Positions 7,987 to 51,680 of a stretch of DNA of 64,000 bases are shown here, one piece after another. The first letter of the stretch is position 1. Every line of letters begins with the position of its first letter. A program made the translations under genes and the position numbers. Source of the stretch: an uncultured delta proteobacterium (GTDB lineage: Bacteria > Myxococcota_A > Polyangia > Polyangiales > B10-G4); assembly GCA_963727445.1 (NCBI GenBank), contig CAVSGI010000010.1:288001-352000 (forward strand), in the 5' to 3' direction. The notes below the pieces were generated by a model that worked only from the letters and a program-made list of their open reading frames with translations, was not told the DNA's origin and did not search any database.

Positions 7987-9363
7987 TCAGATGCCGGTAC
8001 AGAGCGCTTCGACGAGCTCGCTGTCGCCGCCGGTCGCCGGGCGCACGTAGGCGACGTGCAGTCCGTCGTCGAAATCCGCGCCCCAGAAGAGCGGGTAGGC
8101 GCTGTCGGCGAAGGTGAGCGTCGCGTCGGGGGTGTGGGGCATGGCGGTGCCGAAGGCGTGACGTTCGACGAAGACGGATCCGCTCGACGAGCGGAGCGAC
8201 ACGAAGCCGAGGCCCGCGGGGCGGTTCGCGAGCGCGGGCACGCGCGTGAGGCCCGAGGCAGGTGCGGCCGACCAACCCGAGCCGTCGCGCGCCGCGAAGA
8301 GAAGATCCGAGCTGCTCCGGTAGGCGATGGTCGCGCCTGCGCCGTCGGGGCTGGTGGCGAGGGCCACGGCGAGGCTCGCAGAGACGGGGTTGCGCGGCGC
8401 GCTGTCGACGGTGGTGCACGCCCAGGTGGACGACAGCGCCGAGGCATCGGCGGCGAGGATCGCGTCGGGTGCGGAGCCCTCGGGAACGGCGGAGACCGCG
8501 AGGGCGATCGTGCGTCCACCGGTCGACCCCCGCGCGGACATCTCCAGGCTGGCGCCGTTCGGCACCGTGCAGCCCGTCGGCGTCATCGACCACGCCGAGC
8601 TTCCCCGCCGCGCGCTCACGACGCTCGCTTCCATCGCGCCGGGGACGTCGTCGAAGAGGAGCTCCGGGACGTCGTCGGAGCCGATCAGCAGCGCGAGGTC
8701 CCGGGCGATCACGCCGTCGCGCACGTGCTCCACCGTCCCGAAGGTGCTGCCGTCGAGGGCGACGTAGTACACGCCGAAGGTCGTGGAGGAGCCTACCGTC
8801 TCGTAGCCGAGGAACGCGACGTGGATGACGCCGGTCGAGTCGACGGCGACCCGAACGGTCGGGTCGGCCAGGATCGGGTGCACGTCGCCCGGAACGGTCA
8901 CCGTATCCCAGGCCCCTGCCGCTCGGCGCGCGACCGCGATGGGGGCGTCGGTGCTCGCGCGCTGGGCGAAGGCGACCACCGGCTCGCCGCTCGCGTCGAG
9001 GGCCCAGTCTCCGCGGAGAATCGACGCGTCGCTCGTCAGGTCCACGTGATCGACCACGACGCAGGAAGGCATCATGGCGGCATCCGTGGTGCTCGCGTCG
9101 ATGGAGCCATCCGCGTCGGGCGACCCGTCGGCGCTCGCATCGGGCGCGACCCCGGTGTCCGCCGCCGCATCGAGGGCCGCGTCGGGCTCCGCGTCGGGCC
9201 CGCCGTCCGGCAGCGCGCTCGTATCGACGAAGGCGTCCGCCGCCGCGTCTTCGGTCCCGGCGTCCCCCTCGAGCATCCCCCCGTCGTCGACGACATCGCG
9301 CTCGTTTCCACAACCGATCGCCGAAGAGAGCAGGGCCAGAGACGTGAAGAGAAGCAGTCGCAT
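7987..9363 (-). CDS. Lipoprotein with acidic linker and probable beta-propeller domain
   Basis: MRLLLFTSLALLSSAIGC lipobox; D/A-rich linker; repeated 'ALDASGEPVVAF / AVDSTGVIHVAF' blades. Confidence 0.75.
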   Translation of the reverse strand: MRLLLFTSLALLSSAIGCGNERDVVDDGGMLEGDAGTEDAAADAFVDTSALPDGGPDAEPDAALDAAADTGVAPDASADGSPDADGSIDASTTDAAMMPSCVVVDHVDLTSDASILRGDWALDASGEPVVAFAQRASTDAPIAVARRAAGAWDTVTVPGDVHPILADPTVRVAVDSTGVIHVAFLGYETVGSSTTFGVYYVALDGSTFGTVEHVRDGVIARDLALLIGSDDVPELLFDDVPGAMEASVVSARRGSSAWSMTPTGCTVPNGASLEMSARGSTGGRTIALAVSAVPEGSAPDAILAADASALSSTWACTTVDSAPRNPVSASLAVALATSPDGAGATIAYRSSSDLLFAARDGSGWSAAPASGLTRVPALANRPAGLGFVSLRSSSGSVFVERHAFGTAMPHTPDATLTFADSAYPLFWGADFDDGLHVAYVRPATGGDSELVEALCTGI

Positions 9364-9529
9364 GCGCGCCCCCTCAGCAAGAGCTCTGCCACCCGCGCCC
9401 ACCCGCATTCACCGACGAATTCCCGCCCCCGCGCGGCAGGTGTGAACGCCGGTTCATCCTCGACGCGGTTGCGCCTGTGGCGAGGGATTCACTGTCGACG
9501 GATGTCGTGGGCGTCGCGCCAGCAACGAC

Positions 9530-9557
9530 AAACGGCCAGCCTTTCGGCTGACCGTTT
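9530..9557 (-). terminator. Hairpin terminator of the original tRNA-Gly locus
   Basis: Minus strand AAACGGTCAGCC-GAAA-GGCTGGCCGTTT, directly after the stranded tRNA 3' end. Confidence 0.7.
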
Positions 9558-9604
9558 CGGAGCGGGCGATGGGATTCGAACCGACGACATTCAGCTTGGG
9601 AAGC
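9558..9604 (-). repeat. att junction of element A: stranded 3' half of tRNA-Gly(CCC)
   Basis: 47-bp direct repeat of 14575-14621 (45/47 identical); spans anticodon loop to acceptor end. Confidence 0.92.
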
Positions 9605-9949
9605 CAACGACGGCACGAGCAATCTCGGGAGGTTGCGACCCAGCGTGGACGCAACGTGGACGATGTCGAGGGACTTGCGACCGCGGTGCTCGCGCTGGCG
9701 CAGACCGAGGTCGATCTTCCGGCCGATCTCGCCATCCGGCTGATCGACGCCGTGCTCGCGTCGGCGAGTGAGATGGTCAAGCTCGCCCTCGCGGCGAGAG
9801 AAGGCGGCCCACATGCGACCCGTCACCTGATCGACCTTGCAAGCCGCGTTCTCTCGAACGTCGACGACCGCAGGGAGCCGCAAGCAGCCGCGGTGGGAGA
9901 CGCAGCGACGTCGCCGATTGGATCAGAGGGAACCATCGAACCCGAGTAG
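9605..9949 (+). CDS. Detached C-terminal segment (114 aa) of integrase A, in frame with the att repeat
   Basis: ORF 9569-9949 begins GFEPTTFSLGS, identical to the last residues of integrase 13731-14624, and continues QRRHEQ...IEPE*. Confidence 0.7.
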   Translation, partial: QRRHEQSREVATQRGRNVDDVEGLATAVLALAQTEVDLPADLAIRLIDAVLASASEMVKLALAAREGGPHATRHLIDLASRVLSNVDDRREPQAAAVGDAATSPIGSEGTIEPE

Positions 9950-10055
9950 GGCGAAACACCAAACACCAGCCCCTCTGCGGCGGTGGCATCCACCGCAGAG
10001 GTCGTCGCACGAGGCGACGGCTGGAGCCCGCCGCGCACACGGAGGACGGCGGACA

Positions 10056-11807
10056 GTGGACATTGTAGGCCAACAAGAAGTCGACCGCGACCAGCTCATT
10101 CCGCGAGATAGAGATCACCTACGCGGGAGCGGGCTCACGGACGAGACCATCAGGAGAGCAGGTGTCTACTCCCTGCGGAGCCCGGCGGACGTTGCACAGG
10201 CGCTGGGTCGGTCATGGGTCCGAGGCGGTGGGATCGCTTTCCCCGTATTCCTTCCCGGGGAATCGAAGCCGGACCACATTCGCGTGCGTCCACACGAGCC
10301 GAAAATGCAGGGACGCGACGGGAAGGAACGGCCCCGTAGGTACGAAGGGCCACGGGGTCGGAGTCCCGTCTACTTCTCTCCGCGCGCGCGAGCGCAACAA
10401 TGGACCGACGAGATCCTTGTCGTTGAAGGTGAGAAGAAGGCCCTCCTCCTGGACCAGCTCGGGTACGCGGCGATCGGGTTGATCGGTTGCTGGCAGGCGC
10501 ACGACAAGCCTCACAAGGACAAGACCGGCAAGTGGCGGCTGCATCCCTGGATCCGCGCTTACGTGCCGGTGAGCGGTCACCAGATCGTGGTGGTGGCCGA
10601 CGCGGATGCGTCCGTGAACCCCGACATCGCCGCCGCGGTCCGCAAGCAGATCGTGATGTTCCGTACTGCGGGTGCGGAGGTTCGGGTCGTTCACGTGCCC
10701 GACAGCGGGAAGAAGAAGAACGGCATCGACGACTTCTTCGTTCGCGCGGGCGAGGAGGCGACGAGAGCCCTGTTGAAGCAGTCGCACGCCGAGGCAGGCG
10801 TGACGGCAGTCGATAGCTGGATCCAGCAGACAGTCATCGAGATCGGTGATACCGCACCCCGTGACGGCGAGCCCGTGGTCCTATACTTGGGGCGAAATAG
10901 GCAGACGCCTGTGTTCAGGTACTGGCCATTGCCAGGCGTGCTTTCCATGTTCGGGTTGGGGTCGGCACGCACGCTCCTGCTCGCGCGTATTGCACGCCTG
11001 GCCGATGATGATGGCGTCGCCCATGGCCGCAAGACTTGGTGGTACGACGACGCCACGGCGATGCTTGGAACGCGTGGCCTCGCGAGGGCCCTAGGACTAC
11101 GTTCACCTGGAGGGGTCCTCAAACATCTACGAGCCCTCGAACAGGCCGGGTACATCGATCGAGAGCATCAGTGCGGTGCGGCCCGGTTGCCCGACACGAT
11201 AACGATCCGGCCTTTCATCTGGCACTATTGGGGATGCGGGGGCAGGTGGTTTCGCGAGGACATCCGTCGAACTGATGTTGTCCCGGACCACGTGATCGAG
11301 CACATCATCGAGAACAAACTGGCCATCAAGGATGACTGGGCCTGCTACACGGTCGGTGGAAAGCGCTTCGAGAGACTCCATCACCTGACCAACGCGATCA
11401 GGGCCGACGAGGCATGGGCCCGCGCGACGGTGCACGAGGCGGTGGCAAGCGGTACCCTTGCGGACCAGCTTCCGATCCGCTGCCCTCCCGACCGGTACTG
11501 GAACGTCATGCACGTCCCGGAGGCGCTGGTCGCCCTGCGACTCGTCAGCCATCAGGCCGCTCTCGTGTACACGCGGATCGTCTGGCGAAACGGCAGCCTG
11601 GGACCCCGCCCGCTGGACCGCCACGATCTCGCCGAGTATGTCGGGCTCTCCTCGACCGATGGCTTGCGCCGCTACCTGCGTGAACTCTATCAGGTGGGTC
11701 TGCTCTCCAGGCTCCCCAACGGCCGCTTCGTCCCGCTGATGCACGAGTGGCTCCGTTCACCCGGTGCTCTGATTGACGGCAAGACAGTTCGTCGCTGGTC
11801 GGGTTGA
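10056..11807 (+). CDS. DUF3854/Toprim primase-like protein fused to two winged-HTH domains (putative Rep)
   Basis: GGAGG at 10041 then GTG 10056; motifs HLRGSGL, GIAFP, VVEGEKKA, VVADAD, KNGIDDF; wHTH-like TRGLARALGL..GGVLKHLRALEQAGYI and RHDLAEYVGL..DGLRRYLRELYQVGLL. Confidence 0.8.
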   Translation: MDIVGQQEVDRDQLIPRDRDHLRGSGLTDETIRRAGVYSLRSPADVAQALGRSWVRGGGIAFPVFLPGESKPDHIRVRPHEPKMQGRDGKERPRRYEGPRGRSPVYFSPRARAQQWTDEILVVEGEKKALLLDQLGYAAIGLIGCWQAHDKPHKDKTGKWRLHPWIRAYVPVSGHQIVVVADADASVNPDIAAAVRKQIVMFRTAGAEVRVVHVPDSGKKKNGIDDFFVRAGEEATRALLKQSHAEAGVTAVDSWIQQTVIEIGDTAPRDGEPVVLYLGRNRQTPVFRYWPLPGVLSMFGLGSARTLLLARIARLADDDGVAHGRKTWWYDDATAMLGTRGLARALGLRSPGGVLKHLRALEQAGYIDREHQCGAARLPDTITIRPFIWHYWGCGGRWFREDIRRTDVVPDHVIEHIIENKLAIKDDWACYTVGGKRFERLHHLTNAIRADEAWARATVHEAVASGTLADQLPIRCPPDRYWNVMHVPEALVALRLVSHQAALVYTRIVWRNGSLGPRPLDRHDLAEYVGLSSTDGLRRYLRELYQVGLLSRLPNGRFVPLMHEWLRSPGALIDGKTVRRWSG

Positions 11808-11867
11808 TGATGCCCACGTAGGCCGCGGCAGTAGCCCGGATGGCACCCACCGCTACGTGGTCGTCGT

Positions 11868-13256
11868 TCAGGGGACCATGGTACGAGCCGAAATCACGAC
11901 GTCGCCATCGCTGCGAACCGCGAGATCTGTGGCCCACTCGTCCGGTCCTGGCAAGTCACCGGGAGACCGAAACCACGTGAGGCCATTCAAGTCCACTTGA
12001 TACAGTACCGCTTGGTTGACGTCATCGTCATCGACGTGCTCGTAGCTTCTTCCGACCACGAGGATGGAGCCGGGCTCCGGTCGAAGTTGGATGCCATAGG
12101 CCGACTCGTGCCAACGTGCGGTGGTACCGAGAAGAGCGTAGCCCGTCATGAATCCGAACGAGGTGTCGAGCGCACCCGTTGGGCCGAGGGCCGCTACTAC
12201 AATCCGGCCGGCGTGGAGGCCCCGCTCCGTATCGAAGGCCGTCGCTGTTGCTGCGAGCAGCAACCTGCCCTCGCCGTCGAAGACACCGCCGTTCGCCCAG
12301 GAATGCCCGGTCTCGCCAGTCATGGCCGAACCGGGAAGAACGGCAAAGCCGGTTCCTGAGCCTCCGAACGCAAGATCCGGGGTGCAATCTTCTGCGCGAA
12401 TCTTGCCGACCCAGATCGAGCGAACGCTGGAAAGAAGATGAAGTTGACCGATGAGGTAGATGTCGTCAGTTGCCGGATCGATCGCGAGTCCGCGTACGAC
12501 CACGTTGCTGGTCAGGTTGGCAGCCCCACCTCCATCGCTCGGGAAGAGCTGCAACCACTCGAAGACGCCGTTCTGTCCGCACGACGGGTCTGGATTGCCA
12601 TTTTCATCGAGTCGGGCCACGACGGGTCTCCCATACGCCGTCAACAGGTCGAACCAGCCATGCCCGGCGACCACGATTCGCCCCAGTGAATCCAGGCCGA
12701 TGTCTGTGGCGCGCTCATCGCGAAGCGTCGGAGAGTCGATCAACTCGTACCCATCCACCGCCGCAGCGTCACCGAAGGACAGATCCCTCACTCCCGTGGC
12801 CGTGTAGCGAGCCACCGCCATGCGGCCCGGAGTAGAAACATAGCCGGCCGCAACGAGGTAGTCGGTGGCAGCCAGGTTCTGGTAGGCGACAGCGGCATAC
12901 TCTTCGTCGGCAGAGCTAAGAAAGTCCTCCACCACGCGACCAGAACCGGAGCCGAACGCGGGATCCTCAACGCCAGTAGACAGATAGCGCGCCAAGGCAA
13001 ACACTCGGCCCGACGCCCCGGTCCCAAAGCCCACCGTGGCGAGCCCGTCGGCGGGGTCCACCACGATGTCGTTGGCTTGCTCGCGAGGGCCACTGAAATC
13101 GGTGGAGCGCGTCCAGAGCCGATCGAAAACGAGGCCGGTGGAGAGCGCCGGCCGCGTGCACGCTCGGAAATCCGGTGATACGTTCGCAGCATGACTCGTT
13201 CGTTGTTCGCAGAGACAACGATGGTGTTCCTCCTGGTGGGCTGCGGCGTCTCTCAT
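11868..13256 (-). CDS. Delta-60 repeat (beta-propeller) protein, probably 5'-truncated or degraded
   Basis: Repeated 'LARYLSTGVEDPAFG', 'VARYTATGVRDLSFG', 'GPTGALDTSFG' units; no clear signal peptide; likely indel near 11890. Confidence 0.7.
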   Translation of the reverse strand: MRDAAAHQEEHHRCLCEQRTSHAANVSPDFRACTRPALSTGLVFDRLWTRSTDFSGPREQANDIVVDPADGLATVGFGTGASGRVFALARYLSTGVEDPAFGSGSGRVVEDFLSSADEEYAAVAYQNLAATDYLVAAGYVSTPGRMAVARYTATGVRDLSFGDAAAVDGYELIDSPTLRDERATDIGLDSLGRIVVAGHGWFDLLTAYGRPVVARLDENGNPDPSCGQNGVFEWLQLFPSDGGGAANLTSNVVVRGLAIDPATDDIYLIGQLHLLSSVRSIWVGKIRAEDCTPDLAFGGSGTGFAVLPGSAMTGETGHSWANGGVFDGEGRLLLAATATAFDTERGLHAGRIVVAALGPTGALDTSFGFMTGYALLGTTARWHESAYGIQLRPEPGSILVVGRSYEHVDDDDVNQAVLYQVDLNGLTWFRSPGDLPGPDEWATDLAVRSDGDVVISARTMVP

Positions 13257-13640
13257 CCCGCGGACGACTCCGGCTTCGACGCAGACGCGAATCCCCCGGA
13301 TGCCGGACTAGATGCCGACGGATCTGCGGATGTTTCCGCGTCCGACACTGATGCCGCCCGTGACGCCGATGCCTTCGATACCACCCCTCCGCTGATCACC
13401 ACGTGCGAGGGCCTGTATGCCTACGAGGCCCGCTGCATGGAGGAGTTCAGCTCCTGCACCGAGATCGAGCCCAGGGTGATCTCTCACGGCTGTGATGATG
13501 AGCTGACAGCGCTCTTTGCTTGCTTCGTGGAGGAGAGGTGCATTCCGTTCGCCTGCGAAAGCGTTCGCTTTCCTTTGCTGGACTGCCTAGACGCCTACTG
13601 TCGGAGGATGCCCACACCACCTGAGTGTCCCGATACGTAG
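13191..13640 (+). CDS. Small Cys-rich lipoprotein (cargo)
   Basis: LLVGC lipobox, D/A-rich linker, Cys-rich C-terminal domain. Confidence 0.65.
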   Translation: MTRSLFAETTMVFLLVGCGVSHPADDSGFDADANPPDAGLDADGSADVSASDTDAARDADAFDTTPPLITTCEGLYAYEARCMEEFSSCTEIEPRVISHGCDDELTALFACFVEERCIPFACESVRFPLLDCLDAYCRRMPTPPECPDT

Positions 13641-13699
13641 GCGTCGTCGCGGGGGATACGCGTGAAGAAGGTGATGACCGTGGTAGTTGGTCAACGGAG

Positions 13700-13800
13700 G
13701 GACCGAAAGTGAACGCGGGCTGGACCAAGAGTGAACGCGAGCCTCTCAGGCGGACCAAGAGTGAACACGGGGTCGAAAGTCTGGACCGAAAGTGATCACC
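13700..13800 (+). repeat. Four 18-bp iteron-like direct repeats GGACC(GAA/AAG)AGTGA(A/T)C...
   Basis: Copies start at 13700, 13722, 13752 and 13783, followed by an AT-richer tract with TGATCT-C-AGATCA. Confidence 0.75.
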
Positions 13801-14624
13801 CTTTAATCCCTGATCTCAGATCAATCCCAGAAGACGGAGAAATCCCAATACGCCGCTCGCTCTGCTCGAAGGGGATATCGGCGGCCGTCGACCCAACCGC
13901 GCGTCCCAGCGACGTTTCGGACGATTGGTTGCGACCGGTGGAAATCGATCAGCTCCTCGAAAGCGAGGCCATCCCGATCCACCTGCGCACCGTATACGCT
14001 GCCGCCATCGGACTCGCGCTCCGACTGAACGACCTCAAGAACGCCGAAGTCGCCCACGTCGACCTAGACTGCAAGGTACCGGGCCCCGGCATCCGCGTCT
14101 GGATCAGCAAGTCGAGGATCTACCACCGGGTTCCGATCATGCCTTGGTTGGTGCCCATTCTCAGGGAGCACATCGCACGGCTCCCGCCGGGCTCGCGCTG
14201 GCTCTTCGCAAACCGGAAAGGAGAGCGCTACTGCAAGGGCTACGATTTCAAGTGGGCCGAGAAGAAGGCGAAGCGGGGGGCCTACGACTCAGCGCTCACG
14301 ATCGCCGGGGTGGACCGCCGGATTCGGTTCCACGACCTCCGAGGCACCTGCGCAACGCACCTAGCCCTCGGTACCTGGGGGCGGGCGTGGAGCCACTTCG
14401 AGATCCAGAAGATGCTCGCGCATTCGGACGCGAAGGTCACCGAGCGCTACCTCAAGCGCGTCGTGGACCCGCTCGCCGACGCTGCCCGGAACACGCCCGG
14501 TGGGCCTCGGTTCGGCGTCCACGGCCGTCCACGCCGCGAAGGCGTGGAGGACGTGCAGCCCAACGAGATCAAAGCGGAGCGGGCGATCGGGTTCGAACCG
14601 ACGACATTCAGCTTGGGAAGCTGA
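13731..14624 (+). CDS. Tyrosine recombinase/integrase A (catalytic domain only; ends inside att/tRNA)
   Basis: Catalytic motifs LALR, FHDLR, MLAHS, TERY. Integrase-like sequence starts near 13926 (WLRPVEID). The stop TGA lies in the antisense tRNA anticodon stem. Start uncertain. Confidence 0.85.
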   Translation: MNASLSGGPRVNTGSKVWTESDHPLIPDLRSIPEDGEIPIRRSLCSKGISAAVDPTARPSDVSDDWLRPVEIDQLLESEAIPIHLRTVYAAAIGLALRLNDLKNAEVAHVDLDCKVPGPGIRVWISKSRIYHRVPIMPWLVPILREHIARLPPGSRWLFANRKGERYCKGYDFKWAEKKAKRGAYDSALTIAGVDRRIRFHDLRGTCATHLALGTWGRAWSHFEIQKMLAHSDAKVTERYLKRVVDPLADAARNTPGGPRFGVHGRPRREGVEDVQPNEIKAERAIGFEPTTFSLGS

Positions 14625-14650
14625 CACTCTACCAACTGAGTTACGCCCGC
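14578..14650 (-). tRNA. tRNA-Gly(CCC), intact, at the junction of elements A and B
   Basis: GCGGGCG/CGCCCGC acceptor; D arm ACTC/GAGT; anticodon arm TCAGC-TTCCCAA-GCTGA; T arm GTCGG-TTCGAAC-CCGAT; U73; CCA not fully encoded. Confidence 0.95.
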
Positions 14651-14662
14651 AAGTGACCGATG

Positions 14663-14691
14663 TTCTTAGCCATTGCCTCCTTCGGCGTCAA
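14663..14691 (-). promoter_or_regulatory. Element-encoded sigma70-like promoter for the reconstituted tRNA-Gly
   Basis: TTGACG-N17-TAAGAA, 12 nt upstream of the tRNA G1; embedded in the last codons of integrase B. Confidence 0.65.
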
Positions 14692-15879
14692 GCTCCCCCG
14701 AATCGTCCCCAGACCGATCCCCAGAGTCGGCCGGCGCGGAGCCGTTCTTGGCCCCTTGGACGAGCCGAAGAACCCTCCTGACGGCCGCCCGCTTCTCGTC
14801 GCCCTCGACGAAGGAGTAGTGGGCGGTCATCGCGTCGGTGACGTGGCCCATGAGGGCCTGAGTGACGATCGGGCTCGTCACCTGTCGCGTGAGGTTGTTG
14901 TTCGTTCGCCGGAGACCACTGCCGAGCGTCACGCGCCGATCGATCTTCGCAGCGGCCAGTACCTTCTTCCAAGGGTTACGAATCCCGCTCCCGTTCCGGA
15001 TGATCTTCCCCACCGTGGAAGGGAAGACCAGGCCGGAGGCGATGCGTGCGGCGTCGCCTTCTGACAGGAGACGTTCGCGGTGATCCTTCAGGATGTTGGC
15101 CAGGTAGGGCTCTATGGGTACGCCTCGAACCCTGATGCCCGTCTGACGCGTGGTCTTCAGCTTTGGCTCGCTATCTCCCTGGTACTGCGCCCGCCGGAAG
15201 GTAATCTCCGGTATTTGGAAGTCGACATCCTTCCATAGCAAGGCGCTCACGGCTCCGTAGCGCGCCCCTGTCAGCGCGATAGTCGCGAAGAAGGGATGCC
15301 ACTGAGGAGTGACCTCCTGTGCAGCGACCAGAACACGCGCCAACTCCTCAGCCGTGAGTCGATTCGAGTCCTCTTCTTCACTGGACGTCTCTTCGCGTAG
15401 ATAGCGAACCCGAGCGGCGGGGTTCACGGACAATCCGAACTCCACGGTCATGTCGGACATCATCGTCTTCACCACGCGAAGGTAGCCGTTCGCCGTGACC
15501 GGCTGATTGGGTCGGGTATCGCGCCACTTGCAGACATCGCGGTGCTTCACGGCATCCACGTAGAAGTCGCCCAGCCATCCGAGGTGGTCGAGCGCGTTGC
15601 CGTAAGTGTCCAGCGTCGATTTAGCGATCTCGCCGGCCTTTGATCTCAGCCACGATTCGGCGAAATCTGCGACTCTTTGCCGTGGCTTTGGTTCCGTCTC
15701 GTTGAGTAGCTCTTCCCTCAGCCTTGCTCGGATCGCCGCCGCGTCCGCGGCGCTTCGCGCCTGAACGATCCGAATCCCACCTCCTTTTGCTTTCCGGTTC
15801 TCGGGTCCATTGTCGTTGCCCGGACGCGGTAATCGCCTTTCCGGACTCTTCTTACACCTGGGTACTTCGTTGGTTTCAT
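14666..15879 (-). CDS. Tyrosine integrase B (apparent frameshift near 15770-15790)
   Basis: GGAGGT + ATG 15879 gives MKPTKYPGVRR...DPRTGKQKEV (arm-binding-like); the body continues in another frame with TGARYGAV, SGLRRT, LMGHVT, TAHY. Confidence 0.85.
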
Positions 15880-16156
15880 CCCAACCTCCAACCCCAGGCG
15901 CTTCGTGCCGGGGGCAATGGTCCCCCCGCCGAAGGAAGGAGTCGAGCGTCGATTTCAGGTACAGCCGCCGTCGCCGAGAGCCGGCGTCGGGGGTGAGGTG
16001 GCCGCGCGCCACCGCGGTGCGCAGGCCGGAGGCGGTCATTCGGCAGTAGGCAGCGGCCTCCTCGGTGACGAAGTAGGGCGACACTCTCCCACTTGGTCTT
16101 TCTCGATCGTCCTGCGCATGGCGATCCTCGATCGCACGGTCGTCTTCGTCGCGCAT
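15880..16156 (-). CDS. Excisionase-like HTH protein upstream of integrase B (3' end unclear)
   Basis: YFVTEEAAAYCRMTASGLRTAVARGHL...RRLYLKSTLDSFL, an HTH_17/Xis pattern; currently reads in frame into the integrase body. Confidence 0.7.
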
Positions 16157-16271
16157 CGCATCCAGATTTCTCCGGAGGCAGGAGCCACGAGTTCCGGTTG
16201 TCGTCGCTCACGAGGGAGCGCCATGGTGTCCATCTCATGGTGTTCAGCGGGCGGGTTGTTGTCTGTGTGGG

Positions 16272-17322
16272 CTACTCGAATGCCCACGTGCTCTCGTTCA
16301 GCTCTCGACCGTTGAGTAGCTGCACGCTCCAGCGGACGCGAGACCCTGAGCCCCGCCCGTTCTTGATCGCGACCTGCACCGACTCGCGGATGCACTTCGC
16401 GCCATCCGCTGGGTGCAGCAGCCCGCGAAGAACGGCATCGACGATCTTCCACCGCTGCATCCACGCCCAATGCGACTCGGACTGCATCTCAAGAAGCGCT
16501 GCGAGCAGCGGGGGCTTCAGAGCACCGACAATGACGTCGGGATCCCCACCAGTGTCCGAGGTGACCTCGACAGCAGCGCGCCAGATCACCCTGGCCAGCT
16601 CGATGCATCCGCGCAGCCACGCCGTGATGAGTGAAGCCGAGGTACTTCCGCGAGAAGCGGCAGAAGCTGCCGCCGATGTATCGGCGGTGCAGCTTGCGGT
16701 GCTCCACGGTCTCCAGAATCTCGCCCCAGAGGAGCAGATTGTAGACATCGGCCTTGAGCGCGGTCTCCAGGACGCCGCGGGGAAGGACGTGGGTCCGGCC
16801 CGAACTCGACAGCAGGTGCTCGGGATCGAAGATAGAAGGCGCCCTCGGCGTCAACGAGTGCGTCAACGCCGAGGGCTTCAAGCTGTCCGCGGTGCCCGGC
16901 CGGATAATCGATTTGGGTGTCCCGGTCCCATGACTCCTATGGGGCCTATGAGAGCGGGGACCTGCCGCTTGGGCAGAATGGCGGGGGTCAGTCGGCCCCC
17001 GCCCTCGGCCGTGCCTAGTGCGGAAAAGAGAAGTGATGTCTCGGAGTTCAGGGAACTCCAGGTCGACCTGTTCGAGCGCCGACCAAAGTTTGAGATTGCC
17101 CGCCGCGGGTTCGTACGCGCGGAGCCAGGACTCTAGGACCTGCATGCGGTTGGTGGTGTCGGGGGCACTCGCCCCAAGCCTCCCGAGCAGGTTCCACACC
17201 TTCGCGGCCCGGGAGTCGGCAGCGCCCCTCGAAGTACTCGAAGCCCAAGAAGGTGAACGGGTCCCGGATGCCCCCAACGCTCCGCTTGTACTCGGAGTGA
17301 CCTCGGCGGTTGCGCAGTACAC
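16272..17322 (-). pseudogene. Fragmented hypothetical coding region of element B
   Basis: Overlapping minus-strand ORFs 16489-17322 and 16272-16748 have protein-like stretches but no recognisable family. Confidence 0.3.
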
Positions 17323-18994
17323 CCCCGCGTGCTGGGCGGACCCTCAGCCCGAGGGATGTCCTTCGAAGCGGCAACGTCGATGTGTATCTCAACGTCGATA
17401 CGATCGGCCTATATGAAAGATCCTGACACGCTACGAACAAGCGCTGCTCGAAGTGCTCGCGGTTTGGAACGGGCGTTCCCACGCAGACATCAACCTAGAG
17501 TATCGCGGGAGAACCAGTGACACGAAGAAGGGTCCCAACACGCTCGTCGTCGACTTCATCGAAAGCTTCTTCTGCGACACGCGAGCATGCCCTCAGATAA
17601 TGGTCGGCGCTCAAGGCGTCTCCAACTGCTCCGGTGAAGGAGCCTTTGTCCAAGTAGTCCTCCGCGATTGCGTGGCGCCGCCGGGCTGAAGTGCGCCACC
17701 CGGTGCGTGCAGCGAGAACAACCCGTACGGGCCGTGGATGCCTGATACCGCACTCCGCACTTGGTCGACGGACCGCTCCACCGGCATATCTTTCCAGGGG
17801 ATCCGACCCACGAACTGGGTCATGCACTGGCCGGCGTCGGGCACACCACCTGCCCGGGCACGATGGAGGCGACCGCATGGGGTGCCGGGCAGCCCGACTG
17901 CATCCTGTACTCCGAGGATCAGTTGGCCATTCGTGGTGCCATCGGCTTCACATGGGACACCCCGAAGATATCCGAATCATCCGACGGACTAAACTGGGTC
18001 TCAAAGGTCAACGCCAGTGCCAATCCCTGGGCCGGCTCGCATCCCAGTTCGACCACTCTCTATGGCGCTTTTCCACCAGCGGTTGCCGGTCTGCCTTCGT
18101 GGTCTAATGAGCGAGTTCAAACCACCACGCTACTTGTCGACTACGCCGAGCGGTTCCGAAGCGTGGGAGACGTAGGGGGATAGTTTCCGCTGCCCTCGAC
18201 GACCGGCGACTTCAACGGCTCGACGCTGGCGGTTAGCTGGTTTGGCGCAGTACGCGGACGCGACCGCATCCTATTGCGATCCGGGACCGTTCCCAAGCGG
18301 CATGAGTGGCTGCCACCTGTTTCTTGCGTACGCCGTCGGCAGCGCGACGCCCACGGTTGGCTCGTACACACCAACTACCGGTGTAGGGACTGGAGAGGCG
18401 CCCAGAGTCCAGTACAATCCGGCGTTCGATGAGTTTGTCGCATTCTTCATAGACGCCGATACAGGCCAACTGAGATGGATGCGGGCACCCGCGATCAGTG
18501 GAGCGTGGGGACCTGACGCCCCGGTGACCGGCGCTGTCGGCGGAATGATGTTGCGGCACCTCGGCGGGGTTGTGTTTGATCCAACGACCGGAGACGGTCT
18601 GTTGACTGCCACACGAGACGACGGGACACCCCGCAATGCTATCTGGCAGATCGGACTCAATCGGACACCGTCGGGAGCCTACAACGCGTTTGCCGTGGGA
18701 CCCGCCGGAACGATCGTTGGGGAGCATCAGACGTTCAGCGAGTTCGGGATGGCGCGCGCCTCGGATGGCCGCGTGCTCCTAGCCTTCAGCGCGACGATCC
18801 CGATGGCTCCGCCATTTGCGTGGCGTCGCCGCTTGATGGTCTCCGAGAAGACCTCCATCAACCCAGGAGTACCGTTCCCGACCCCGTCGGAGCCGGGTAG
18901 TCCGCCCGTAATCAGTGAGGTGGGAGTCGATCTCACCTACGATGCGTTTGAAGACCGCTGGATCCTTGGTGTGGTGAAGGCAGAATGGGAGTAG
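17270..18994 (+). pseudogene. Disrupted secreted metzincin (matrixin-like) protease with C-terminal beta-rich domain
   Basis: THELGHALAGVGH followed by TM (Met-turn-like) near 17806-17870; in-frame TGA at 17687; frameshift near 17804; break near 18183. Start approximate. Confidence 0.6.
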
Positions 18995-18996
18995 CC

Positions 18997-19458
18997 ATGA
19001 CTAGACTCATTCCTCTGATCGGCGTTGCGGCCGTGCTTGGTGGCTGTTCACTCTCCCACGAAGATGAGACCACGCCCTCGTCTTCGGAGTCTGTTGCGAC
19101 TCCCACGCCAGCTCCTTCCCCTCCTCCTCCATCCTTCCATGCCCCAGACGGGTGGAACTGTGCCATCTCGACCCACGCGGCCTGGCGGAACCAAACTAGC
19201 TGGGCACGTACGATCGTTGTTGAGTCCTCCGAGCAGGTTTCGGCCGAAGGAGAGTACCTGCGCGAGTACGCCATAGTGCCGTCGGTTGAATCGCCCACGC
19301 GAGTCGGTCGCGTATGGGCGCTTCCTGAGCTGGGCCAACCCGACGGCGCGTTTGTGGCACTCCTCGATTCTGGCGATCAAGTCTTCATGTGGGCACCTCT
19401 CAATGATCGGGTTGTCCATTTCGCTGACGAGAGAGCGACCCTCGATGACCTCTTGTAA
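18997..19458 (+). CDS. Lipoprotein, hypothetical
   Basis: MTRLIPLIGVAAVLGGC lipobox; S/P-rich linker. Confidence 0.65.
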   Translation: MTRLIPLIGVAAVLGGCSLSHEDETTPSSSESVATPTPAPSPPPPSFHAPDGWNCAISTHAAWRNQTSWARTIVVESSEQVSAEGEYLREYAIVPSVESPTRVGRVWALPELGQPDGAFVALLDSGDQVFMWAPLNDRVVHFADERATLDDLL

Positions 19459-19747
19459 CTCCTTCTTCTGGGTTCTGGTCCTCGCTCTCGTATGCGTGAG
19501 CTGCTCTAGCAGCAGAACTCCCTCCGATGGAGGTGTCGACGCATCGCTGGATGCCGCTGACAGCGGTGGGGAAGATGCTCTTGACGGCGCTTCGCATGAC
19601 GCCGCGCTCGACGGCGCATCGTCCGATTCTGACGCCACTGACACCATGTGTCGCGGGATGGAGGAGCCGTGCACCGTTGACGAGGACTGCTGCTCCTACG
19701 CGTGCTCGGTCCGCCTCCGCCTTTGCGGAATGCCAATCGACCCTTGA
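19445..19747 (+). CDS. Small lipoprotein with C-terminal six-Cys (C-C-CC-C-C) domain
   Basis: Hydrophobic leader ending LVCVSC; D/A/G linker; CRGMEEPCTVDEDCCSYACSVRLRLC. Confidence 0.65.
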   Translation: MTSCNSFFWVLVLALVCVSCSSSRTPSDGGVDASLDAADSGGEDALDGASHDAALDGASSDSDATDTMCRGMEEPCTVDEDCCSYACSVRLRLCGMPIDP

Positions 19748-19874
19748 TGGGGTCAGTGCGGGATCCCCAGAGCGATCCCCAGACCCGGTGGGACACCACG
19801 AAGCGGCACGAAGCGCCTAGGGACGCGATTGCTTCGTGATTACCGAATCTGCGAATCGTCTCGTGGTGGCTTGA

Positions 19875-19918
19875 TCAGCTTGGGAAGCTGACACTCTACC
19901 AACTGAGTTACGCCCGCA
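19875..19918 (-). repeat. att junction of element B: stranded 5' half of tRNA-Gly(CCC)
   Basis: GCGGGCGTAACTCAGTTGGTAGAGTGTCAGCTTCCCAAGCTGA, then non-tRNA sequence. Confidence 0.92.
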
Positions 19919-39277: not shown

Positions 39278-40690
39278 ATGAAGGTCGTGGTCATCGGCGG
39301 GGGGATCAGCGGCCTCGCGGCGGCGCACCGCGTGATGGAGCGCGATCCGAGCGCCGAGGTGACGCTCCTCGAGGCGACCTCGCGGGTGGGCGGGTTGATC
39401 CACACCGAGGTGACCGACGACGGCTACGTGATCGAGCGGGGCGCGGAGTCGATCATCACCGACAAGCCCTGGGCGCTGGACCTCGCCAAGCGTCTGGGGC
39501 TCGGCTCGGAGATCGTGTCGACGGTCGCCGCGCGACGCGGGGCTTACGTGGTGTCGCGCCGCAAGCTCGAGCGGATCCCCGAGGGCTTTTCGCTGTTGGC
39601 GCCGATGCGCATCGGGCCGTTCTTGAAGACGCCGATTCTGTCGCCGGGCGGCAAGGCGCGCGCCGCGCTCGACCTGGTGCTTCCGCGCGGGCGTGCCGAT
39701 GACGAGAGCCTGGCCGATTTCGTGCGGCGCCGCTTCGGGCAGGAGCTCCTCGACCGCCTGGCGCAGCCGCTGGTCAGCGGCATCTACGGCGCGCCAGCGG
39801 ACAAGCTGAGCCTCGAGGCGACGATGCCGCGCTTCGTCGAGATGGAGCGCGAGGGGCGGAGCGTGAGCCTGGCGCTCAGGCGCCGGCAGCGGCGCGCGGC
39901 GCGGGGCGGGAAGGGGACCGGCGGCGAGGCGGCGTCGGGGGCGCGCTATGGGCTCTTCATCAGCTTTCGGCTCGGCAACCAGATGCTGGTGGACGCGCTC
40001 GCGCGGGCGCTCGGGGAACGAGTGCGGCTCGACGCGCCGGTCGAGTCGCTCGGGCGCGTGGGGGACGGGTGGCGGGTGCAGGCGAAGGGCGAGACGCTCA
40101 CGGCGGACGCGGTAATTGTCGCGCTGCCGGCGCATCGTGCGGCGCCGCTCGTCGATGAAGCGGCGCCAGGGCTCGACGATTCGCTGCGGGAGATCCCTTA
40201 CGGGTCGGCGGCGACCGTCACCTTCGCTTTTCGTCGCGAGGAGATCGCGCATCCGCTCGACGCGTATGGGTTCGTGGTGCCGGCGATCGAGCAGAAGGCG
40301 GTGCTGGCGTCGACGTGGCTGAGCCGCAAGTGGCCAGGGCGCGCACCGAGCGGCATGGAGCTGATCCGGGTCTTTCTCGGCGGCGCGGGATGTCCTGAGG
40401 CGCCGCGCTGGGACGACGAGCGTCTGCTGCGCTCGGCGCGCGAAGAGCTCGAAGAGCTCATGGGCGTGAGGGGCGAGCCGACGCTGGTGCGCATCGACCG
40501 CTACCTCGACGCCATGCCTCACTACTACGTCGGCCACAAGAAGCGCGTCGCCGCCATCCAAAAGAGGGTCGCCCAGCTCCCCGGCCTCCACCTCGCCGGC
40601 AACGCCTACGAAGGCGTCGGCATCCCCGACTCCATCCGCGTAGCCGAACGAGCCGCCGACTCCGCCACGGGAACGCTCCACACTTCCTGA
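39278..40690 (+). CDS. hemG: HemY-type protoporphyrinogen/coproporphyrinogen oxidase
   Basis: GGGISGL FAD motif, SGIYG, AMPHYYVGH, GVGIPD. Confidence 0.92.
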   Translation: MKVVVIGGGISGLAAAHRVMERDPSAEVTLLEATSRVGGLIHTEVTDDGYVIERGAESIITDKPWALDLAKRLGLGSEIVSTVAARRGAYVVSRRKLERIPEGFSLLAPMRIGPFLKTPILSPGGKARAALDLVLPRGRADDESLADFVRRRFGQELLDRLAQPLVSGIYGAPADKLSLEATMPRFVEMEREGRSVSLALRRRQRRAARGGKGTGGEAASGARYGLFISFRLGNQMLVDALARALGERVRLDAPVESLGRVGDGWRVQAKGETLTADAVIVALPAHRAAPLVDEAAPGLDDSLREIPYGSAATVTFAFRREEIAHPLDAYGFVVPAIEQKAVLASTWLSRKWPGRAPSGMELIRVFLGGAGCPEAPRWDDERLLRSAREELEELMGVRGEPTLVRIDRYLDAMPHYYVGHKKRVAAIQKRVAQLPGLHLAGNAYEGVGIPDSIRVAERAADSATGTLHTS

Positions 40691-40700
40691 CTCCCCCCCC

Positions 40701-40857
40701 ACGGGGACGGTCTACACTTTTCAACTTTCCTCCCCACCACTCCGCCACGGGGACCGGTCCGCGACGGGGACGGTCTACACTTTTCAACTTTCCTCCGCGG
40801 GACGTACCGCCACGCGGACCGGCTCGGCGCGAAAGTTGAAAAGTGTAGACCGTCCCC
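40701..40857. repeat. Three copies of the 27-bp repeat GGGGACGGTCTACACTTTTCAACTTTC (two direct, one inverted)
   Basis: Copies at 40703, 40766 and (inverted) 40831-40857, between convergent genes. Confidence 0.9.
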
Positions 40858-40858
40858 C

Positions 40859-42025
40859 TCAGAGGGGGGCGTCGGGGAGGTAGGCGGTGTGCACGTGGCG
40901 GCCGGCGGGGGGGAGGTGCGTGCGGCGGCGGTCGATGAAGTTGGTGAGGGCGCTGGGGTCGGGGGTGGCCGTGAGGGTGGGGGTCTCGTGGAGGGTGGCC
41001 TCCCGGGCCATGAGGCCGACGAAGTCGGGGGCGTGGGGAAGGCCGATGTCCCAGGGCAGAGTGAGGGCGAAGGTGAGGACGTCGGGGGCGCGGTAGGTGC
41101 GCGGGTCGAGCGCTTCGAGCGCGCGGGCGTCGCGCATCACCAAGAGGCCCGCGGGGATCCGGCCGGCGCCGGGCTGGTCGAGGTCGCCCGCGATGTCTTT
41201 CGCGATGGCCGCCGCGAGCGGAGCGTCGTCCGGTGAGAGGGCGATCACGCGCCGCGGGCGCGGCCACAAGATGCGGAGCGCGTGCGCGAGCCCCGCGACG
41301 AGCGCGCCCTGGCGCGTGCCGTCCACGACGACAGTGTCGTAGCGCCCGCCGTGCGGACCGCATGCGTCGAGCAGCAGCGCCCCGTGCTCGAGGAAGTAAT
41401 AGTCGCGCGCGTCGGGCGGATCCGCGTCGGGCGCGATCGGCGCCCGTGAGAGCGCCGCGTCGAGCTTCCCCAGAAGGCGTGGCCCAGAGCCGAGACGCGC
41501 GAGCTGCGCGCGGCTCGCCCGCGCCGTCTCGACGTCGCCCATTAAGAGCGACGCCCACGCGAACTCGAAGAGCGCCCCCGGGTCATCCGCCAGATTCGGG
41601 TGCAGCGCCAGCGTCTCCACCACCTCCCGCGGGCGCCCCGCCCGCGCGAGAGCGATCGCGGCCTCGCTCCGCAAGACCGCGTCAAAAGGCGCCAGCGTCA
41701 TCGCCGAGCCCAGGACCGCCGCCGCGAGCGGCGCGTCCTCCTCGCTCAAGAGCCGGCTGCCCAGCTCGAATGCACGCTGCACGTCCTCAGGCGCGTCCGC
41801 CGCCCGGTCGAAGAGCTCGGCGAGCTCGCGCTTACCCACGCCGCGAAGCGCCTGCGCCGCGAGCTCGTACGCCGCCGCGCCCGGCGCGCTCAAGAGCGCC
41901 GGGCGTAGCGCCGCGAGCGCACCCTGCGCATCGGCCGCGTCGAGCCGCGCGCGCGTCTCGCGAAGCGCCTCGTCGGCGCGCGCGCGCCGCCTGCGGCCTT
42001 CGCCCAGCCGGCTCCAGAAACCCAC
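40859..42025 (-). CDS. Hypothetical protein with TPR-like helical N-terminus
   Basis: 388-aa ORF with helical repeats and GC3-rich codons. Confidence 0.65.
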   Translation of the reverse strand: MGFWSRLGEGRRRRARADEALRETRARLDAADAQGALAALRPALLSAPGAAAYELAAQALRGVGKRELAELFDRAADAPEDVQRAFELGSRLLSEEDAPLAAAVLGSAMTLAPFDAVLRSEAAIALARAGRPREVVETLALHPNLADDPGALFEFAWASLLMGDVETARASRAQLARLGSGPRLLGKLDAALSRAPIAPDADPPDARDYYFLEHGALLLDACGPHGGRYDTVVVDGTRQGALVAGLAHALRILWPRPRRVIALSPDDAPLAAAIAKDIAGDLDQPGAGRIPAGLLVMRDARALEALDPRTYRAPDVLTFALTLPWDIGLPHAPDFVGLMAREATLHETPTLTATPDPSALTNFIDRRRTHLPPAGRHVHTAYLPDAPL

Positions 42026-43217: not shown

Positions 43218-43264
43218 CCCCATTGCTATAGCACTTCTGGGCGAGGCGATCGCGCCGCCCTGCG

Positions 43265-43425
43265 AGTGCCTGGTTCGATGACACGGAAGGGTTCTCGCTC
43301 GTTCGTCGGCCGCCTCGCGGCATCGGGCGACCTCGAATGTGTACTGCACGTCCATCGGTTTCCCTCCTTGCGACGCGACCGACGCCCGTCGCGATCTCCT
43401 CTTCCGTGTCATCGAACCAGGCACT
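43265..43425. mobile_element. MITE-like element, 161 bp, perfect 25-bp terminal inverted repeats
   Basis: AGTGCCTGGTTCGATGACACGGAAG ... CTTCCGTGTCATCGAACCAGGCACT; related copy at 51590-51680. Confidence 0.7.
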
Positions 43426-43436
43426 ACGGTAGGTCG

Positions 43437-48916: not shown

Positions 48917-48984
48917 GTCCCTACAGACCCGATTACGCCCGGAGGCCCTCTGGGGTCAAAAAAAGCGACCGGGTTCGCGGGGGA

Positions 48985-49062
48985 GAAAGTTGAAAAGTGT
49001 AGACCGTCCCGGTTTGGAAGCCGGGGTTGGGGGGAGAAAGTTGAAAAGTGTAGACCGTCCCC
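48985..49062 (-). repeat. Two more copies of the 27-bp repeat
   Basis: GAAAGTTGAAAAGTGTAGACCGTCCC at 48985 and 49036. Confidence 0.9.
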
Positions 49063-49064
49063 GT

Positions 49065-49961
49065 TCAGCGGGTGACTTGTAGGACGGCTTGGGCGAGGAG
49101 GTCTGGGACCTCTTCCTGGAGGAAATGGCCGGCCTGGGTCTCGCGTACGCTCGCTTGGGGCAGGGCGCGCTGGTGGCGTGCGAGGGCCCGGCCGAGGATG
49201 GGGTCACGCTTGCCCCACACCAGGGCGGCCGGGCCTCTCCATCCTTCGACCCACGCCCCGACCTCGTCCATCACCGGCGTCGAGGGATGGGATTCGGCGT
49301 CGGGCACCATGCGCGCGAGGCCGAGCGGCGCCGCGCGGTCGAGAACGTGACGTAGGGGCCACGCATACGCGCCGAGCTCGGCGGGGCCGAGGCTCCGCCG
49401 ATCGCCCTGCACTCGTCGCATCACCGGCACCGGAAAGAGCAAGCCGCGGAAGACCGCGTCGCTGACCACCGGCATGTGGGAGAAGCGGTGGAAGGGCTTC
49501 GAGCGGAAGGGCCGCGCCGGGGGGAGCACCGCCGTGTTGGCGAGCACCAACCCGCGCACCCGATCCGAGAGCGCGTGACCGACGCCAGTGGCGATCGGTC
49601 CGCCCCAATCCTGACCGACAACGACCAGGTCTTCGGGCGCCAGCGCCTCCACCAGGTCGCGCACCAGCGCGATGTGTCGGTCCAGCCGATGTTCCTTCGG
49701 GCGGCGCGGCTTGTCGCTCAGGCCGAGGCCGAGAAGGTCCGGTGCGACGCAGCGCACGCCCTCGCCGCGCAGAAGCGCGATCACCTTTCGCCATAGATAG
49801 GACCAGGTGGGATTGCCGTGAACGAGGAGCACCATCGGGCCCGTGCCCTCGTCCACGAAATGGATCTGGGTGCCGTCGACGTCGGCCATCCGTCGTCGAA
49901 AAGGCATGGCGCGCGCGAGGAAACGCGGGAGGCGCGGCGCCTCGGCGAAGGTGACGCTCAC
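49065..49961 (-). CDS. Haloalkane dehalogenase-like alpha/beta hydrolase
   Basis: HGNPTWSYLWR, GQDWGG, GHFLQEE; GTGA overlap with the upstream regulator. Confidence 0.88.
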   Translation of the reverse strand: MSVTFAEAPRLPRFLARAMPFRRRMADVDGTQIHFVDEGTGPMVLLVHGNPTWSYLWRKVIALLRGEGVRCVAPDLLGLGLSDKPRRPKEHRLDRHIALVRDLVEALAPEDLVVVGQDWGGPIATGVGHALSDRVRGLVLANTAVLPPARPFRSKPFHRFSHMPVVSDAVFRGLLFPVPVMRRVQGDRRSLGPAELGAYAWPLRHVLDRAAPLGLARMVPDAESHPSTPVMDEVGAWVEGWRGPAALVWGKRDPILGRALARHQRALPQASVRETQAGHFLQEEVPDLLAQAVLQVTR

Positions 49962-50565: not shown

Positions 50566-51594
50566 ATGCGCGAGATCACCCATCGCTACCGCGACCCCCT
50601 CGACGTCGTCTGGACCGACGCCGCGCGGCGCATCGGCCTGACGATCGCGCGCAGCGCCGAGTGCTATGCCTCCACCGATGGACGGGGGACGCTGATCATC
50701 GGCGCGACCGAGACTCTCGACCCGGACGACTCCCTCGCCCAGATGGTCTTTCACGAGCTCTGCCATTCGCTCGTACAGGGACCGGAGTCCTTCGAGCGCG
50801 TCGACTGGGGGCTCGACAACGTGGGGGACGGCGACCTCGCTCGAGAGCACGCCTGCCTCCGTGTGCAAGCCGCCCTCGCCGCCCCCCTCGGGCTGCGCCA
50901 CTTCCTCGCGCCCACCACCGAGCACCGTGCTTTCTACGACGCGCTCTCCGCCGATCCCTTCGCGGGCGACGACCTCTCGGTCCGTCTCGCTCGCGCCGCC
51001 GCCGCGCGCGCCTCGCGGCCACCCTGGGCGCCCCATCTGATGAACGCCCTGGAAGCGACGCGTGCGATCGCCACCGCGGTGGGCGAGGCGGCGACTGGCG
51101 AAGCGCGCTCGCTCTACGCGCGCATCGACCCGCCGATCCCCGCGCACCCGTCCGGTCTCGAAGGCGCACCGCACGCGGTGGGGCGGTGCCGGCGATGCGC
51201 GTGGCGGTACGAAGGCGGGCCGGGCAAGAAGGTCGATCGCTGCCGGCAGGCCGAGGGGGCGCGGGTCGATCCCGACTGGCAGGGTTGCGCGCGCTTCGAA
51301 GAGGCACTGGAGTGCACCGAGTGTGGCGCGTGCTGTCGCGAGGCCTACGGCGCGGTGGAGGTGAGCGCGCGCGACCCCTTCGCCGCCCGCCACCCCGAGC
51401 TCGTGACGAAGAAGAGCCGACGTCTCGAGGTTCGACGCGACGGGGATCGCTGCGCTGCCCTCGAAGGCGGCCGGAGCCTCCACGAGCCCTATCGCTGCGT
51501 GGTCTACGACGACCGCCCCCGCACCTGTCGCGACTTCACGCTCGGGAGCGAGAACTGCCTCGTCGCTCGTCGTCGCGTCGGCCTGAGCCGCTAG
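50566..51594 (+). CDS. YkgJ/CxxCxxCC Cys-cluster protein with N-terminal HExxH domain
   Basis: HELCH at 50752; CTECGACC; CVVYDDRPRTCRDF. Confidence 0.8.
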   Translation: MREITHRYRDPLDVVWTDAARRIGLTIARSAECYASTDGRGTLIIGATETLDPDDSLAQMVFHELCHSLVQGPESFERVDWGLDNVGDGDLAREHACLRVQAALAAPLGLRHFLAPTTEHRAFYDALSADPFAGDDLSVRLARAAAARASRPPWAPHLMNALEATRAIATAVGEAATGEARSLYARIDPPIPAHPSGLEGAPHAVGRCRRCAWRYEGGPGKKVDRCRQAEGARVDPDWQGCARFEEALECTECGACCREAYGAVEVSARDPFAARHPELVTKKSRRLEVRRDGDRCAALEGGRSLHEPYRCVVYDDRPRTCRDFTLGSENCLVARRRVGLSR

Positions 51595-51680
51595 TGCCTG
51601 GTCCAATGACGTAGAAGGGTTCTCGCTCGTTCGACGCCCGTCGCGATCTCCCCATCCACCTCATTGGACCAGGCACTAGC
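51590..51680. mobile_element. Internally deleted copy of the MITE-like element, 20-bp inverted repeats
   Basis: GCTAGTGCCTGGTCCAATGA ... TCATTGGACCAGGCACTAGC; shares internal GAAGGGTTCTCGCTCGTTC and GACGCCCGTCGCGATCTCC. Confidence 0.7.

Follow-up and report, generated by a model that had tools for sequence, protein, structure and literature searches.

We analysed a 64,000-nt stretch of DNA (the window; contig CAVSGI010000010.1, positions 288,001 to 352,000) from an uncultured delta proteobacterium of the order Polyangiales, and focus here on a small integrative element within it, element A, whose integrase gene (int) is very probably cut in two by its own attachment site. The element is bordered by a 47-nt direct repeat (9558-9604 and 14575-14621; 96% identity) with a spacing of 5,017 nt, which equals the length of element A. 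This repeat corresponds, in antisense, to the 3' half of a tRNA-Gly(CCC) gene (14576-14650, minus strand), which is intact and the sole tRNA called with a CCC anticodon in the assembly. The right-hand core (14575-14621, minus strand) restores the 3' half of the tRNA and is read by int as ERAIGFEPTTFSLGS, and the left-hand core (9558-9604, minus strand) is a displaced tRNA 3' half that carries two differences from the intact gene. An intact tRNA and a displaced fragment around an integrase-bearing segment form the signature by which the Islander definition recognises tRNA-targeted integrative elements (PMC4383910). The repeat ends just beyond the anticodon loop, which suggests crossover there, corresponding to site class A as named in that paper. 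Element A is a small island carrying a replication protein (Rep) and an integrase, inserted at the anticodon loop of tRNA-Gly(CCC).

As a preliminary description of this DNA had stated, the integrase open reading frame (ORF), 13731-14624, reads through the antisense tRNA in the right core and stops directly behind it, ending in IGFEPTTFSLGS; both the ORF and the repeat coordinates bear this out. The ORF contains a Phage_integrase domain (PF00589; E=2.8e-14, 53.7 bits against a cut-off of 27.1), in which we located R98, K127, H201, R204, H231 and Y240 (numbering of ORF 13731), residues whose catalytic roles we take from the known tyrosine-recombinase motif. Y240 is encoded at ~14448 and the core at 14575-14621 lies downstream of it in the int frame, which places attP inside int. 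The stretch from 13731 to 14621 amounts to 297 codons, and position 9605, directly behind the left core, begins a codon in phase with int when the two ends are joined. From there the int-phase frame is open for 114 codons followed by a stop (9605-9949, plus strand), as also described before, while the other two frames are open for 45 and 54 codons. We refer to this detached 3' end of int as the tail.

An open frame of at least 114 codons is within the range of chance (5.6% of base shuffles, 18-23% of positions in mobile DNA and 36% of genomic positions), so that the reality of the tail had to be decided from relatives. A protein search returned 67 homologues besides the window's integrase, many of which end in antisense-tRNA peptides, while others add 70-120 residues after such a peptide. 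Every homologue with at least 105 residues behind the catalytic tyrosine, 33 in all and the window excluded, contributed its final 95 residues to a tail profile. Among 112,637 six-frame genomic ORFs it matches 9605-9946 at E=1e-13, with the runner-up at E=0.018. Using a refined profile of 71 rows (A4), tail and integrase are found in one protein, the tail behind the att peptide, in 14 of the 67 homologues at 20 bits or more, with nine more at 8-19 bits. Searched against 1.84 billion representatives, A4 matches 881 clusters; 13 proteins among the best 150 tail matches exceed 300 amino acids, and 12 of these 13 have Phage_integrase ahead of the tail. Fused forms on three metagenome contigs (L040, L046 and L047) lie with a single att fragment where no intact tRNA is present, the arrangement expected of attP; these contigs may represent free circles or tandem junctions. 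Judged by these sequence comparisons, the conservation of the tail is beyond chance. Full-length homologues with both parts, for which the preliminary description had suggested a search, therefore exist, and neither of the outcomes it named as speaking against the split occurred, namely free homologues ending at LGS or a 9605-9949 frame that is not conserved with the integrase.

Named close relatives are metagenome-assembled genomes of Polyangiales and Sandaracinaceae, from which the host is probably a myxobacterium of this kind. In a search of 301 genomes of the phylum, the 13 tail matches all fell within the window's order and none beyond it. Pfam and PHROGs contain no family that matches more than one of the 71 tail members, and none that matches the window's tail. 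In tblastn searches with the window's integrase or P0010, a natural long form, phages gave no match and plasmids one, at 27%; no relative was present among 26 pattern matches in IMG/VR, and the ESM Atlas gave no usable match for the tail. Genes for ParB and a methylase lie near the fused form on L047.

How consistently is the frame kept between integrases and their parted tails? Among 401 genomes of the window's order the integrase profile matches 79 and the tail profile 96. Our analysis covered 53 of 106 listed integrase matches and 70 of ~154 tail matches, mainly from genomes with both, and paired them by a shared core of at least 24 nt, counting each tail once. A shared core is present in 27 of 73 within-genome combinations (27 of the 53 integrase loci), and 24 of 26 unique pairs join in phase without a stop; leaving out the five pairs used to seed the profile, among them the window's, 20 of 21 do so. 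Each of the three antisense frames of the T arm is represented (by 14, 4 and 2 of the in-frame pairs; the motif is absent from four more), and the targets across the family include Gly, Arg, Asn, Asp and Thr tRNAs, several tails following a tRNA that is read in sense. The sequence data show, as far as such comparisons can, that selection keeps integrase and tail in frame. At the same time, int sequence lies directly upstream of only two of the 70 genomic tail loci, so in chromosomes the tail is nearly always parted from the enzyme. These two int-adjoined tails, one in frame (L181) and one frameshifted (L103), may mark tandem junctions at which a long integrase is restored in the chromosome.

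The preliminary description regarded the tail as an uncharacterised helical domain, and structure prediction agrees. AlphaFold2 gives four helices for the window's tail (residues 21-33, 40-53, 58-66 and 71-90), with a predicted local distance difference test score of ~90-95 in the core; the domain spans residues 21-90, or ~9665-9874. The P0010 model has this bundle at 425-495, behind a linker of about 40 residues with low confidence (378-417) and, ahead of that, a three-domain integrase; the model matches 6en0, 1z1g and 1z1b (E of 1e-7 or below), among them lambda Int and Tn1549 Int. The conserved positions of the tail fall within residues 25-83, with helical hydrophobic spacing, a mean column identity of 25% and a motif GG..A.RRA.ELA; R73, R74 and E77 (window numbering of the profile consensus) are among them. 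Its helices have a median net charge of -3 across the 71 members (range -6 to 0), which argues against DNA binding, and we rejected a role as a DNA-binding domain on this ground. The best PDB match from Foldseek has E=0.41, and the best from VIA-align (Z 7.0, root-mean-square deviation 5.3, 91 residues aligned) lies within the helical-bundle background; a two-copy complex prediction scored 0.41 against a mark of 0.42.

Both sides of the core carry short repeats. Two arm-type-like 8-mers lie 10 nt apart in the int linker before the right core (14516 and 14526; 14516-14533, plus strand), and two inverted copies lie 11 nt apart behind the left core (9644 and 9655; 9644-9662, minus strand). In the family, 15 of 26 true pairs have a 7-mer in tandem ahead of the core and an inverted copy of it after the core, vs. 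52 of 650 mismatched pairs. By analogy with lambda we consider these 8-mer pairs putative arm-type sites, in which case the int linker and the first 20 codons of the tail would double as attP arms.

The window's copy itself is probably defective. The start of int at 13731, given in the preliminary description, did not stand: the nearest homologue, P0002 (434 amino acids, ending in FSLGS), is 87% identical to the window's integrase, with the match starting abruptly at its residue 183, which corresponds to 13866. The first ~45 codons of ORF 13731 are without counterpart in P0002, and the match to the 482-position family profile begins at position 182. We therefore rejected 13731 as a genuine start; the remnant of integrase A, beginning at ~13866 (13866-14624, plus strand), consists of catalytic domain, linker, att peptide and a stop right after the core, and the N-terminal ~180 residues, whose absence had been overlooked, are missing. 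Three homologue queries did not find residues 1-182 of P0002 in the window or in the assembly, which is 85.6% complete. In the model of P0010 this region holds the domains for arm and core binding, both of which a functional lambda-type integrase has and the window copy lacks. A complete N terminus is present in 23 of the 26 paired integrases, the window copy being among the three exceptions, and no other members of its family were found in the assembly. With both domains lost, even the long form made by excision would still be an incomplete enzyme, and the window copy would presumably be unable to excise itself. Most likely, element A is a stranded relic of an island such as L025, a 6-kb relative with its layout intact (tail, DUF3854-like Rep, full integrase, tRNA-Arg(CCT)) and an identical att peptide at both ends. 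The switch between a long and a short integrase proposed in the preliminary description thus finds support in the family, with its fused forms, kept frame and conserved tail, but not in the window copy, which has lost the arm- and core-binding domains.

Knowledge of the attP-in-int design goes back to phage Mx8 in the 1990s. Lambda Int and Tn1549 Int, three-domain heterobivalent integrases, resemble the present family in fold, as seen in the P0010 matches, and in the inverted arm-like pairs that flank the core in the family; their att sites, however, lie outside the gene, and they are not known to have such a C-terminal domain. The attP-in-int design has been described for "very few integrative elements", and integration of Mx8 swaps a 112-residue C terminus of Int for 13 residues and lowers its activity (PMC4701971). 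Mx8 Int (AF396866, AAK94347) is, like the members of our family, a tyrosine integrase with attP inside int; a GLEP att peptide lies ~112 residues before its C terminus, and it matches the family integrase profile at E=6e-16. Integrase identity is only ~27% over 128 residues, and the Mx8 tail has no detectable homology to the four-helix tail (hhalign probability 0.6% and profile scores of at most 5.4 bits, for a single-sequence target, with which very remote homology could be missed); moreover, Mx8 is a 49.5-kb phage and element A a 5-kb island with Rep and cargo. For Mx9 the same principle is reported (PMC6070905), and a stretch 87% like the window's tRNA-Gly lies inside its int (AY247757, AAP78666) near codon 465. 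Mx9 carries the tRNA 5' half, as does a second element of the window (B, below), whereas element A carries the 3' half, and the Mx9 tail scores below 1 bit against the four-helix profile, again for a single-sequence target. By eye, Mx9 int behind the att site (L220:2001-2253) reads as an excisionase-type helix-turn-helix. Like Mx8 and Mx9, the family has a longer, conserved C terminus in its free form, as seen from the tail profile, the fused homologues and the in-frame pairs, yet from sequence the likeness appears to be one of design and not of membership in an Mx8/Mx9 family in the strict sense. The archaeal "suicidal" integrases (SSV1, pTN3 and pT26-2) likewise have att within the int gene and tRNA targets, and the intact gene is described as its own directionality switch; there, integration inactivates the gene by separating Int(N) from the catalytic Int(C) (PMC8371274). 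The present family differs in being cut behind the catalytic tyrosine, which leaves a three-domain enzyme in intact members. The literature we searched, with subscription papers mostly outside it, contained no description of this integrase family or its tail; the design recurs, and the four-helix domain appears to be new.

We are highly confident of the architecture alone, that is, attP inside int with a tail parted by integration: the split, the frame, the conservation of the tail, the natural fused forms and the loss of the N terminus in the window are all read from the sequences. What the architecture does is a different matter. We propose an order-wide family of lambda-type tyrosine integrases in which the gene spans attP, and in which the protein made from the free circle would consist of an arm-binding, a core-binding and a catalytic domain, a disordered linker encoding arm sites and the tRNA fragment, and an acidic four-helix domain. 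Integration leaves the catalytic enzyme whole and parks the coding sequence of the four-helix domain at the far end of the element, and excision would allow the long protein to be made from the circle. The tail is most likely a protein-protein module that strengthens the assembly of Int on attP for intermolecular attP x attB recombination, so that a free element would have a strong integrase and an integrated one a weaker enzyme, as reported for Mx8. We propose this activating role because the short form of Mx8 Int is less active and because the tail is acidic, and put its chances at about even; the same holds for the architecture, the relic status and the activating role taken jointly.

Several observations weigh against this interpretation. 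Two of the 26 pairs are out of frame, one through a stop before the core and one through a frame difference at the core, and the nominal P of 5e-10 for 24 of 26 is overstated because kin are not independent. No partner was present among the tails examined for 26 of the 53 integrase loci; these may belong to other elements, lie on other contigs or be tailless members. One relative (L089) continues in frame for just 47 unrelated residues, a genome of the same genus (G001, 86% complete) has integrase matches and no tail match, and one pair has an integrated form that exceeds the joined form in length, which means that "short" does not apply throughout. The activity difference between long and short forms would follow from Mx8 by analogy. 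For the window, a misassembly at 13640-13866 is possible in an assembly that is 85.6% complete, and no circle was seen. Three read runs were listed, one with 0.10 of the words, and no RNA run. The low-depth contigs of run X1 contain five 151-nt pieces inside element A (0-1 differences), none of them over 13400-14570; the joint 14621-9605 was not listed in these low-depth contigs, which provides no evidence either way, and a single joint in X2, with a 24-nt side of 80% likeness, probably derives from the tRNA of another organism.

The tail could also act in the opposite sense, as a brake or directionality factor that blocks attL x attR recombination or destabilises long Int, so that only the tailless form would excise efficiently. 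The architecture fits this equally well, integration is reported to modify the specificity of Mx8 Int and not to inactivate it (PMC6070905), and the Mx9 tail resembles, by eye, an Xis-type helix-turn-helix. We nevertheless find a brake somewhat doubtful, given that the long form of Mx8 Int is the more active one in the published account (PMC4701971) and that the tails share no common C-terminal degradation tag, the commonest last two residues occurring in four of 71 members. It is extremely improbable that the tail is a by-product of GC-rich DNA, open by accident and kept solely because it overlaps arm-binding sites: while our controls give a 114-codon frame a 6-36% chance and the first ~20 tail codons do overlap the arm-like repeats, the conserved positions (25-83) lie beyond these repeats, 881 clusters match, and the frame follows the integrase across tRNA targets. 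The profile match, the in-frame pairs and the presence of Phage_integrase ahead of the tail largely refute it.

Could the tail instead be translated alone in the integrated state and act in trans, for example by inhibiting incoming long integrases? In the window, an ATG at 9569 (plus strand), with GGAG 6 nt upstream as a Shine-Dalgarno-like motif (9569-9574 site), opens a 126-residue ORF (9569-9949) ahead of the tail frame, and 120 of the best 150 domain matches are called as tail-only proteins. The latter are, however, expected from a gene caller at a detached end, and the ATG arises from one of the changes in the displaced tRNA copy that also creates a C-C mismatch in, and thereby breaks, the T stem; within the 45 codons before helix 1, an ATG is present in nine of 70 tails and a start with a Shine-Dalgarno-like motif in 11 of 70. 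We regard a stand-alone tail as quite unlikely. Scarcely more probable is that the window copy is still mobile, either because its missing 5' half reflects an assembly error or because a related integrase excises it in trans, a process reported for split integrases of archaea (PMC8371274). In its favour, the assembly is incomplete, and the two cores, the two pairs of arm repeats, the tail frame and the six catalytic residues have all been preserved; against it, the break is abrupt and lies inside a 1.58-Mb contig, and no other integrase of the family was found in the assembly.

Returning to the family with a tail parted by integration, attP-in-int, earlier a rarity, is here a family trait (the tail is found in 96 of 401 genomes of the order, and in 881 clusters). 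It offers many natural long/short pairs for testing how a detachable C-terminal domain affects directionality, and possible integration tools for myxobacteria of the Polyangiales type; the window's copy is a poor specimen for this because its integrase is truncated. For annotation, integrases that end in antisense-tRNA peptides and "hypothetical" ORFs of 80-130 amino acids at island ends are two halves of one gene. More tentatively, the order-wide clade might use its undescribed detachable four-helix domain as a built-in directionality switch without a separate excisionase, the frame being kept across changing tRNA targets, frames and orientation. If this is true, one trick would have added three unrelated modules (those of Mx8 and Mx9, and this tail), and chimeric long integrases could be re-formed at tandem junctions in the chromosome.

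The remainder of element A contains a Rep/primase-like gene with DUF3854 and winged-helix matches (9837-11807, plus strand; GTG 10056 is the likely start) and two cargo ORFs, for a DUF5122 beta-propeller repeat protein (11868-13256, minus strand) and a Cys-rich, lipoprotein-like product, as read from the sequence, that has no Pfam match (13191-13640, plus strand). Four 15-nt direct repeats at 13700, 13722, 13752 and 13783 (13700-13797, plus strand) occupy the place expected for the 5' half of int and its promoter. Their spacings are 22, 30 and 31 nt, an AT-richer stretch comes after them, and the assembly has no second such cluster; they may serve Rep as iterons or be stray arm sites. On the host side, a hairpin directly behind the displaced tRNA fragment (9530-9557, minus strand; -22.4 kcal/mol, z -4.74, 0 of 200 shuffles) is probably the original tRNA terminator; it was not among the terminator-like sites returned by a scan. 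A sigma-70 scan of 9300-14900 returned no promoters.

The same tRNA serves a second element, B (14651-19874; 5.2 kb). The intact tRNA lies between the two elements with the anticodon loop as shared overlap, its 3' half within the repeat of element A and its 5' half within that of element B, and a displaced 5' half (19875-19917, minus strand, equal to 14608-14650) marks the far end of element B. We considered whether its integrase (14666-16156, minus strand) is split as well and rejected this, since its stop lies ahead of the core of the att repeat. A TTGACG-like hexamer, seen by eye, lies upstream of both copies of the tRNA 5' half, and element B appears to supply a replacement promoter. A third copy of the tRNA-Gly 5' half (L219; G000:C11:4957-5158) comes with ~150 nt of the far arm of element B and the upstream promoter region (91% over 203 nt), and may be a related B-type element, a rearrangement or a strain mixture in the assembly. 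Further along the window, a 36-38-nt repeat is present in several copies and both orientations at 40662-40860 and 48979-49065, and two further repeats, at 43262-43426 and 51590-51678, lie ~8.3 kb apart; together these look like the ends of another mobile element. Finally, on another contig (G000:C9:17995-35272), nine tRNA calls, some of them atypical, cluster on the same strand, eight within 3.2 kb; the cluster may be a tRNA array of a phage or an island.

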